Assembly (NCBI GenBank): GCA_036252695.1
Contig: GCA_036252695.1_4122.1
Direction: 5' to 3' (one strand)
Source of the DNA: a phage
DNA length: 64,000 nt
How positions within the stretch are numbered: the first letter of the stretch is position 1; each line of letters starts with the position of its first letter. This document shows, in pieces, positions 31,264-31,740 of this stretch. The translations under genes and the position numbers were made by a program. Below the pieces are notes generated by a model, which was given only the letters and a program-made list of their open reading frames with translations, searched no databases and had not been told where the DNA came from.

Positions 31264-31740
31264 ATGATTCATGAACACCGAGGTAATCTGTTTGAATTAT
31301 TCAGTACTGTTACCGATGATCAAAATGCATTACATATTATTGCTCACGGATGTAATGCTCAAGGTAAGATGGGTTCTGGTTTCGCAAAGGAACTAAGGAA
31401 TCGCTACCCAATGGCATATGATGATTATAAAGCATATGAAAAGGAAATGGGATTTCTTAGAATTGGACAAATTGCATATTCAGCAATTAACGATAATTTG
31501 ATTATTGCAAACTGTATTACCCAAAAAATGTACGGTAATGACGGTGCTAAATATGTCAGTTATGATGCAATCGACGATGTGTTCAAACATCTAAATTATT
31601 TTTGTAAAGTTGATCGAGATGTTCATGTACATTTCCCGAAAATTGGAGCCGATTTGGGCGGCGGTAACTGGAACGTTATCAAAGAAATCATTGATCACCG
31701 TCTGGTCAATGCAGAAAAACACTTATACATTCTAAAATAA
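31264..31740 (+). CDS. macro-domain protein (ADP-ribose binding/processing fold)
   Basis: HGCNAQGKMGSGFA resembles the macro NAAN..GGGVAxAI motif and FPKIGADLGGGNW resembles the FPAIS.GIYG motif; GGAG RBS. Confidence 0.5.
   Translation: MIHEHRGNLFELFSTVTDDQNALHIIAHGCNAQGKMGSGFAKELRNRYPMAYDDYKAYEKEMGFLRIGQIAYSAINDNLIIANCITQKMYGNDGAKYVSYDAIDDVFKHLNYFCKVDRDVHVHFPKIGADLGGGNWNVIKEIIDHRLVNAEKHLYILK

Follow-up and report, generated by a model that had tools for sequence, protein, structure and literature searches.

A macrodomain protein of a 121Q-like jumbo coliphage as a candidate AdfM-type ADP-ribosyl hydrolase

The window analyzed here is a 64,000-nucleotide stretch of phage DNA (GenBank assembly GCA_036252695.1, contig GCA_036252695.1_4122.1), and the gene in question is an open reading frame (ORF) at 31264..31740 on its plus strand, running from ATG to stop and encoding 158 amino acids (aa). 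The product was assigned to the macrodomains, an enzyme fold that takes off ADP-ribose (ADPr) tags, and within them to the ALC1/TARG1-like class, in the branch formed by BT1257, SCO6735, and T4 Tk.4 (AdfM). By analogy with the studied members of this branch, the protein may be an orphan glycohydrolase, antitoxin-like and specific for ADP-ribosyl bonds, that works against DNA ADP-ribosylation of the DarT2 type in the manner of AdfM (probability about 0.5). It is quite probably an active ADP-ribosyl hydrolase.

The window belongs to an Asteriusvirus (121Q/PBECO4-like jumbo coliphage). The nucleotide identity of the region was 99.7% to Escherichia phages vB_Eco_slurp01, G17, and Sharanji and 99.3% to 121Q, all of them Asteriusvirus jumbo myoviruses of ~350 kb. 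The domain call for 31264..31740 is already public and hence not new, because 121Q gp544 and its relatives are annotated as macro domain proteins; the GenBank and RefSeq labels on the 121Q gp544 ortholog read 'macro domain-containing protein', 'Appr-1-p processing domain protein', or 'phosphatase'. The macro gene is not mentioned in the genome paper of Sharanji, and two Iyer/Aravind surveys contain nothing specific to it. The product is thus an uncharacterised addition to a known and very common phage macrodomain family. The gene is functional and under strong purifying selection, because the ratio of nonsynonymous to synonymous substitution rates (dN/dS) against close orthologs was 0.014–0.08 (0.014 vs 121Q, 0.047 vs PBECO4, 0.079 vs EC.P1, and 0.073 vs JNE01).

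Fold, class, and active site

The AlphaFold2 model of the 158-aa protein had a mean predicted local distance difference test (pLDDT) score of 93.5 and a predicted template modelling score of 0.90. When the model was searched against the PDB with Foldseek, BT1257 was the best match (template modelling score [TM] 0.83, E 3e-11), followed by SCO6735, Poa1p, DarG, and TARG1, and then by viral and MacroD-type macrodomains; the top 50 matches were essentially all macrodomains. The model thus matches solved proteins of the macrodomain fold, which has three alpha/beta/alpha layers with a mixed central sheet. In the viral structure library BFVD, the best matches were the Tk.4/macro proteins of T4-like and Felix-O1-like phages. 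A macro fold is virtually certain. The initial annotation had called the product a macro-domain protein and had named the lack of a macro fold in structure prediction as the finding that would count against it; the prediction was confident and its best matches were macrodomains, so the call stands.

A Macro-family profile search, which had also been proposed as a check, gave a divided result. On the protein itself, Pfam Macro (PF01661) stayed below threshold (E=0.0092, 16.4 bits vs a gathering score of 22), whereas the same model matched 37/45 aligned relatives (E<0.01, best 3.7e-12), and a profile built from the 45-sequence family recovered solved macrodomains from the PDB (BT1257 9e-28, SCO6735 2e-20, Poa1p 3e-16, DarG 4e-12, TARG1 6e-10). 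The sub-threshold score is due to divergence of the branch, not to a missing domain. The Pfam score alone was therefore discarded as a misleading guide, and the fold was settled by the PDB, profile, and structure searches. The single sequence gave a similar ranking against PDB sequences in phmmer (BT1257 1.3e-15, SCO6735 1.6e-11, Poa1p 2.7e-6, DarG 4.5e-3), and it matched the PHROG family phrog_335 at 1e-45. The protein belongs to the ALC1/TARG1-like class and the branch named above, because its best sequence and structure matches are BT1257, SCO6735, Poa1p, DarG, and TARG1.

For the active site, 120 homologs and the reference sequences, transcribed from the HMMER outputs, were aligned; 117 of the homologs were of full length, and the TARG1 query was identical to the PDB chains. 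Loop 1 spans N31-AQGKMGSGFA-41 and loop 2 P125-KIGADLGGGNW-136. The glycine-rich loops on which the macro-domain call had originally been based proved to be real: both (GKMGSG and IGADLGGG) aligned column for column with the ADP-ribose-binding loops of the solved macrodomains BT1257, SCO6735, DarG, and TARG1, except that one glycine of loop 2 is an aspartate (D130). Invariant or nearly so among the 120 homologs were H28, G29, N31, G39, N83, T86, Q87, G91, Y100, P125, G128, L131, and G133; full invariance was seen for H28, G29, N31, and G39 in and before loop 1, where H28/N31 equal SCO6735 H24/N27, and for Q87, H28, N31, N83, and T86, which are common to SCO6735 and BT1257. The loop between Y90 and D101 is almost invariant across the phage family, and the pLDDT reached its minimum within it (73 for residues 91-100), consistent with a flexible loop.

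The column of Q87 holds the essential Q85 of SCO6735, K84 of TARG1, and K80 of DarG, and hhalign agreed on this placement against both TARG1 and phiKZ gp104. In SCO6735, the Q85A change abolished activity on DarT-modified DNA and on protein substrates; the enzyme is without the lysine-based mechanism of TARG1 and DarG, and a substrate-positioning role was proposed for the glutamine (PMC9411070). Because the phage protein has Q87 at the catalytic column and SCO6735 does without the lysine mechanism, the predicted active site of the phage protein is of the SCO6735 type and not of the DarG type.

Relation to phage anti-DarT factors

Homologs of the protein were found by tblastn in 2131/50,697 phage records (~4%), and T4 Tk.4 was among them. 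Of the T4 genes, only tk.4 was conditionally required when the host carried DarTG2; its clean knockout sensitises T4 to DarTG2, and it was named adfM (2025 preprint, bioRxiv 10.1101/2025.11.20.689424). In hhalign, the family matched T4 Tk.4 with 99.5% probability (E=7e-23, 139 columns), and the motif NCITQ was placed on NLYTQ; a pairwise BLAST alignment, which set the catalytic strand off by 3 residues, was rejected in favor of hhalign. The top solved relative of T4 Tk.4 itself is BT1257. The family phrog_335 includes the 158-aa protein, T4 Tk.4, and phiKZ gp104, and the PADLOC DarG model scored the first two about equally (1.2e-10 and 1.3e-9).

The phiKZ gp104 AdfM was shown biochemically to strip DarT2 ADP-ribose from DNA (PMC13309987). 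It is a more distant homolog (hhalign 98.2%) and a true DarG-type macrodomain with an FPTK lysine. The name AdfM was given independently (2025-2026) to two macrodomain lineages, T4 Tk.4 (Gln, BT1257/SCO6735-like) and phiKZ gp104 (Lys, DarG-like), which are homologous but probably different in mechanism. SCO6735 removes DarT-made thymine-ADP-ribose from DNA and rescues cells from DarT (PMC9411070); it also reverses uracil-ADPr on RNA, whereas ADPr linked to guanine, a 2'-OH, or a 5'-phosphate is no substrate. DarTG2 systems are present in strains of E. coli (PMC7003065).

The protein is not a DarG, because it failed the cutoff of the DarG equivalog, has neither the catalytic lysine nor the C-terminal domain that binds DarT, and is not flanked by a darT gene. 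The NCBIfam model NF048014 gave 32.9 bits vs a cutoff of 250, and the match to the PADLOC DarG model (PDLC02990) was limited to the macro part (positions 17-136 of 329). Q87 stands where DarG has its lysine (Taq K80, FPTK motif), and the 158 aa comprise a macro domain only. No darT was annotated beside the gene in the window or among the neighbors of six relatives; in these six contexts, no DarT or other toxin gene accompanied the homologs, and all homologs retrieved were phage-borne.

From these relationships we infer catalytic activity, a DNA-thymine substrate, and an anti-DarTG2 role. In the proposed mechanism, the two glycine-rich loops would take up an ADP-ribose adduct in the cleft between them, and the bond at C1'' of the distal ribose would be hydrolyzed. 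The ribose would be positioned by Q87, in the role of SCO6735 Q85, with no lysine nucleophile of the kind seen in DarG and TARG1. The likeliest substrate would be thymine-linked ADP-ribose on single-stranded phage DNA, placed there by the DarT2-type toxins of host DarTG2 systems, and the protein would act as an orphan 'antitoxin-like' counter-defence enzyme that restores replication. The initial annotation had offered two functions, reversal of ADP-ribosylation by host defence toxins and processing of ADP-ribose-derived metabolites. Both still appear to be the leading hypotheses, and the literature on SCO6735 and T4 Tk.4 favors the first.

Several points weigh against an AdfM-type role. It would be a role drawn from homology; the identity to T4 Tk.4 is just ~29-30%, and the substrate range of macrodomains is not readable from sequence (PMC9503650). 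The genomic context points to RNA and translation, not to DNA metabolism. SCO6735 K34, which matters for DNA binding, corresponds to Ser38 here, and the predicted isoelectric point (pI) is 6.5, slightly acidic, vs ~10 in SCO6735, although the validated phage AdfMs are acidic too; overall charge was for this reason dropped as a proxy for DNA binding. Finally, the glycine that is a hallmark of the class at the position of SCO6735 G128 and TARG1 G123 is replaced by Asp130. The standard ADP-ribose-binding-deficient mutant of TARG1, which is catalytically inactive as well, is G123E (PMC5928194), and SCO6735 G128E lost most of its activity on DNA (PMC9411070).

Asp130 is the sole unusual feature of the protein. 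Loop 2 reads IGADLGGG here, whereas BT1257, SCO6735, and TARG1 have IGCGL(A/D). Among the 117 full-length homologs, position 130 was occupied by G (54), D (41), A (9), V (8), E (3), Y (1), and T (1), with D, E, A, and Y concentrated in jumbo-phage relatives of more than ~50% identity and the Asp/Glu130 subclade confined to Rak2/121Q-like jumbo phages. All 44 sequences with D or E at this position retained H28, N31, N83, T86, Q87, G128, L131, and G133, and the active phiKZ AdfM has Ala at the equivalent position (LGCANGG). Since the core residues are kept, the gene is under purifying selection, other residues occur at position 130, and phiKZ AdfM has Ala there, the enzyme is probably active; the Asp130 side chain is probably tolerated and pointing away from the diphosphate.

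It is rather unlikely that the Asp/Glu130 subclade has a remodelled diphosphate loop and, unlike SCO6735 and T4 AdfM, recognizes another ligand derived from ADP-ribose or works non-canonically, for example through Gln/Asp-assisted chemistry or by binding a ligand tightly and sequestering it instead of hydrolyzing it. K/R35 and D130 would then possibly bridge the two glycine-rich loops. The covariation of K/R35 with D/E130 (43/44 vs 19/55) was dropped as evidence, since it is confounded by phylogeny and relatives with A, V, Y, or T130 also have K/R35. Loss or change of ADP-ribose binding in this clade, leaving a non-hydrolytic DarT-binding inhibitor, a ligand sponge, or a protein for a chemically different ligand, is highly unlikely. 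The equivalence of D130 to TARG1 G123 (binding-dead as G123E) and SCO6735 G128 (strongly impaired as G128E) speaks for it, as do the three natural relatives with Glu130 and the finding that SCO6735 and DarG, when catalytically dead, still interact directly with DarT and so inhibit it (PMC9411070). Yet the complete retention of the other active-site and loop residues in the 44 sequences and the strong purifying selection would be unexpected if catalysis were lost, and in the family the position accepts A, V, T, and Y, as it does Ala in the biochemically active phiKZ AdfM. Whatever its effect, a natural Asp or Glu at the TARG1 'binding-dead' site offers a cheap probe of how rigid this rule is across macrodomains.

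If the protein is of the AdfM type, macrodomain-based counter-defence against DarT2 reaches a third major group, the Rak2/121Q-like jumbo phages, beyond the T4-likes and the nucleus-forming chimalliviruses. An AdfM-type role would also strengthen the idea that DNA de-ADP-ribosylation is the main activity across phrog_335, the very common phage 'phosphatase' family, and it would bear on forecasts of phage host range among E. coli, Salmonella, and Klebsiella strains that carry DarTG, therapeutic jumbo phages included. To a specialist nothing here is surprising, the domain call being public and the function drawn from homology.

Genomic neighborhood and other candidate substrates

The features of the macro gene and its surroundings are collected in Table 1.

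Table 1. Positions of the macro gene, its motifs, and neighboring features in the window
Feature	Position	Strand	Description and basis
Macrodomain ORF	31264..31740	+	158 aa; ortholog of 121Q gp544 (YP_009102131.1); stand-alone, single-domain; ORF, annotation, fold, dN/dS
Ribosome-binding site GGAG	31254-31257	+	6 nt upstream of ATG; read directly from the sequence
End of beta-2 and glycine-rich loop 1, H28-G-C-N31-A-Q-G-K-M-G-S-G39-F-A41	31345..31386	+	Alignments; SCO6735 mutagenesis (PMC9411070)
Catalytic-strand motif N83-C-I-T-Q87	31510..31524	+	Q87 invariant; NLYTQ in T4 Tk.4
Family-specific loop Y90-G-N-D-G-A-K96-Y-V-S-Y-D101	31531..31566	+	Aligns to the region containing the SCO6735 'mobile loop'
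Diphosphate-binding loop 2, P125-K-I-G128-A-D130-L-G-G-G-N-W136	31636..31671	+	Alignments
Asp130 codon GAT	31651-31653	+	Aligns with TARG1 G123 (hhalign) and SCO6735 G128
Terminator-like hairpin	31224..31252	+	9-bp stem AAGGACTCT/AGAGTCCTT, 5-nt loop, T-tract; abuts the ribosome-binding site
Borderline 2H-SAK phosphoesterase ORF	25358-25768	+	136 aa; 121Q gp531 (annotated hypothetical); PF22547 E=1.4e-5, 25.8 bits vs cutoff 27
HPF/RaiA ribosome hibernation factor homolog	26881-27213	+	PF02482 3e-10
CCA-adding tRNA nucleotidyltransferase	28813-29925	+	
Nudix hydrolase	30033-30434	+	Generic MutT/Ap4A-type matches
GrxA-type glutaredoxin	30436-30684	+	
gp13-like neck gene	32705-33511		Downstream of the macro gene

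The macro gene lies just upstream of neck and tail genes. Two small ORFs separate it from the glutaredoxin gene, and two to three small ORFs follow it before the gp13-like neck gene. Upstream, a run of translation- and RNA-related genes (26881-30684, plus strand) is conserved in the lineage, and a lysozyme gene is also found in the region of the HPF and 2H-SAK genes. The gene order was kept in relatives of 61% identity and in XaC1-like genomes (~45%), which add YqeY and a PTH2-like peptidyl-tRNA hydrolase. In T5-like relatives, the macro gene is found near Gad2 and a cpYpsA SLOG gene, and in T4-likes it is located elsewhere. A homolog of the 2H-SAK ORF occupies the same relative position in an XaC1-like contig (L015); by its borderline profile match, the product may be an RNA-end or ADPr>p cyclic phosphodiesterase.

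This neighborhood bears on the possibility, which we consider doubtful, that the protein processes a soluble ADP-ribose derivative and not a macromolecular adduct. Candidate substrates are O-acetyl-ADP-ribose, an immune signal derived from ADP-ribose, and ADP-ribose-1''-phosphate, on which a Poa1p-type phosphatase would act whether the compound arose from KptA/2H RNA repair or as a toxic metabolite. The product ADP-ribose could then be cleared by the Nudix hydrolase. The gene lies in a block with HPF, the CCA-adding enzyme, Nudix, and glutaredoxin that is conserved across Rak2-like jumbo phages as far as Xanthomonas phage XaC1, and the 2H-SAK gene is 5.5 kb upstream. This block is nevertheless lineage-specific and lost in T5-like and T4-like relatives, so it may reflect inherited synteny and not functional linkage, and the neighboring Nudix matched only generic enzymes of the MutT/Ap4A type. 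Poa1p, an ADP-ribose 1''-phosphate phosphatase, is the third-best solved relative, and its H23 equals the invariant H28. The other Poa1p residues targeted by mutagenesis, S30 and F152, correspond to K35 and G132 here (residue roles as given in PDB entry titles), and Poa1p has Ser at the position of Q87.

A soluble substrate was proposed by Iyer et al. for most phage macrodomains, and the family is labelled 'phosphatase' by PHROG and in several GenBank records. Against it, no KptA was detectable in 36 Asteriusvirus records (tblastn with E. coli KptA, E<=0.01). The same search found KptA homologs in 98 phage records, with Escherichia and Salmonella both missing from the genus tally; the macro family (2131 records) is far more widespread. 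The host has its own kptA, which makes a host-supplied substrate possible. The sole genetic phenotype in the branch, that of T4 Tk.4, is anti-DarTG2.

It is unlikely that the protein instead removes ADP-ribose from proteins or RNA, whether placed there by host ADP-ribosyltransferase (ART) toxins or by phage Alt/Mod-type ARTs, in which case it would serve as a reset enzyme. Both SCO6735 and TARG1 also hydrolyze Glu/Asp-linked protein mono-ADP-ribosylation and uracil-ADPr on RNA, an RNA substrate would fit the RNA/translation neighborhood, and one T4-like relative carries an ADPrib_exo_Tox (Mod-like) gene at a distance of 2 kb from its macro gene. Set against this are the absence of annotated ARTs from the 64-kb window and from the first 100 kb of 121Q, the inactivity of SCO6735 on 2'-OH and 5'-phosphate RNA ADPr, the description of CmdT adenine-ADPr as irreversible so far, and the fact that no family member is tied genetically to a protein target. 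In the 121Q annotation, neither an ART nor a NADAR protein was named in 1-100 kb and 228-292 kb, where most entries read 'hypothetical protein' (~184 kb of the genome lie outside these ranges).

Other genes of the window and of the relatives were noted in passing. SLOG domains are predicted NAD/ADP-ribose-binding modules. The 197-aa product of 49915-50508 (plus strand; 121Q gp567, 'DprA-like DNA recombination-mediator') had a weak YAcAr/cpYpsA-related SLOG match (E=5e-4, 20 bits vs cutoff 28) and, on this match, may be a second member of an ADP-ribose network in the window. The 125-aa product of 32081-32458 (plus strand), two genes past the macro gene, had a very weak Csx1 CARF match (E=0.023, 15.5 bits vs cutoff 24.7), which is probably noise. 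In the T5-like metagenomic contigs L007/L008/L009, the homolog (5001-5465, 45% identity, Thr at position 130) lies in an early-gene-like region with cpYpsA SLOG and HD_4 genes upstream and a Gad2 (anti-Gabija) homolog just downstream, which gives the region an anti-defence flavor.

Only ~2 nt separate the end of the terminator-like hairpin from the GGAG of the macro ORF, too little space for a promoter between them. Its stem (AAGGACTC/GAGTCCTT) was kept upstream of a 61%-identical ortholog (L005) and was absent in XaC1-like relatives, where the ORFs overlap. The hairpin might act as an attenuator or leaky terminator, or else it might stabilise the RNA or serve in its processing. A scan for sigma-70 promoters returned 21 sites vs 20.8 expected by chance and was uninformative on expression timing.

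Between the window and 121Q (L001), ~23 positions differed in 28000-33000, and 19 of them were clustered in 175 nt (31233-31407) covering the hairpin loop and macro codons 2-48. Nearly all of these changes were synonymous (gene-wide dS 0.19, dN 0.003), and the cluster looks like a small homologous-recombination patch. Diversifying selection was ruled out as the source of the excess divergence of the macro gene from 121Q, since almost purely synonymous changes indicate recombination. Similar patches relative to 121Q were seen at ~26500-27500 and 33000-34000, and a strongly divergent stretch at 18000-19000.

Comparison with known systems

BT1257 of Bacteroides thetaiotaomicron (PDB 2FG1/2AFC), the best match in both sequence and structure, shares with the 158-aa protein the H..N, N..GQ, and IGxGLxGG W motifs and the Gln at the catalytic position. 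It differs in being cellular, in carrying Gly where the phage protein has D130, in a His that follows the Gln, and in an identity of ~27%. Being a structural-genomics macrodomain of no known function, it is uninformative on mechanism.

SCO6735 of Streptomyces coelicolor (PDB 5E3B) is an orphan hydrolase of the TARG1-like type that acts on DNA with thymine-ADPr, on RNA with uracil-ADPr, and on proteins with Glu/Asp-ADPr; a protective function against DarT-like toxins has been proposed for it. It resembles the phage protein in the pairs H24/H28, N27/N31, and Q85/Q87, in being stand-alone, and in having no adjacent DarT. The two differ at G128 vs D130 and K34 vs S38, in the sequence of the mobile loop, and in pI, again at ~27% identity.

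T4 Tk.4 (AdfM) has in common with the 158-aa protein the membership in phrog_335, the N-x-x-T-Q motif, a length of ~155 aa, a stand-alone and acidic nature, and a comparable PADLOC DarG score. It has Gly at the D130 position (IGAGIGKGNW), is without the YG.DG.KYVSYDA loop signature, and is encoded in a different gene context, between vs and tk.

The phiKZ gp104 protein and the DarG2 macrodomain (PDB 5M31, 5M3I) are of the same fold class. Like the Asteriusvirus protein, gp104 is a phage-borne orphan antitoxin-like enzyme of phrog_335 with a non-Gly residue (Ala) at the D130 position, but both gp104 and DarG have the FPTK catalytic lysine where the 158-aa protein has Gln. The match to DarG was 9e-25 for gp104 vs 4.5e-3 for the 158-aa protein, and that to PADLOC DarG 4e-39 vs 1.2e-10. 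DarG further has a C-terminal DarT-binding domain and an adjacent darT, of which the 158-aa protein has neither.

Human TARG1/OARD1 (PDB 4J5S) has the same loop architecture (TM 0.76, hhalign 97.9%), while its K84/D125 catalytic dyad corresponds to Q87/G132 and its G123 to D130. Yeast Poa1p (PDB 6LFQ; profile E=3e-16, Foldseek E ~5e-10) shares H23 with H28 and differs in the Ser at the Q87 position, in S30 and F152 at K35 and G132, and in a long insertion ahead of loop 2. Its reaction follows that of Tpt1/KptA, whereas the phage is without a detectable KptA.

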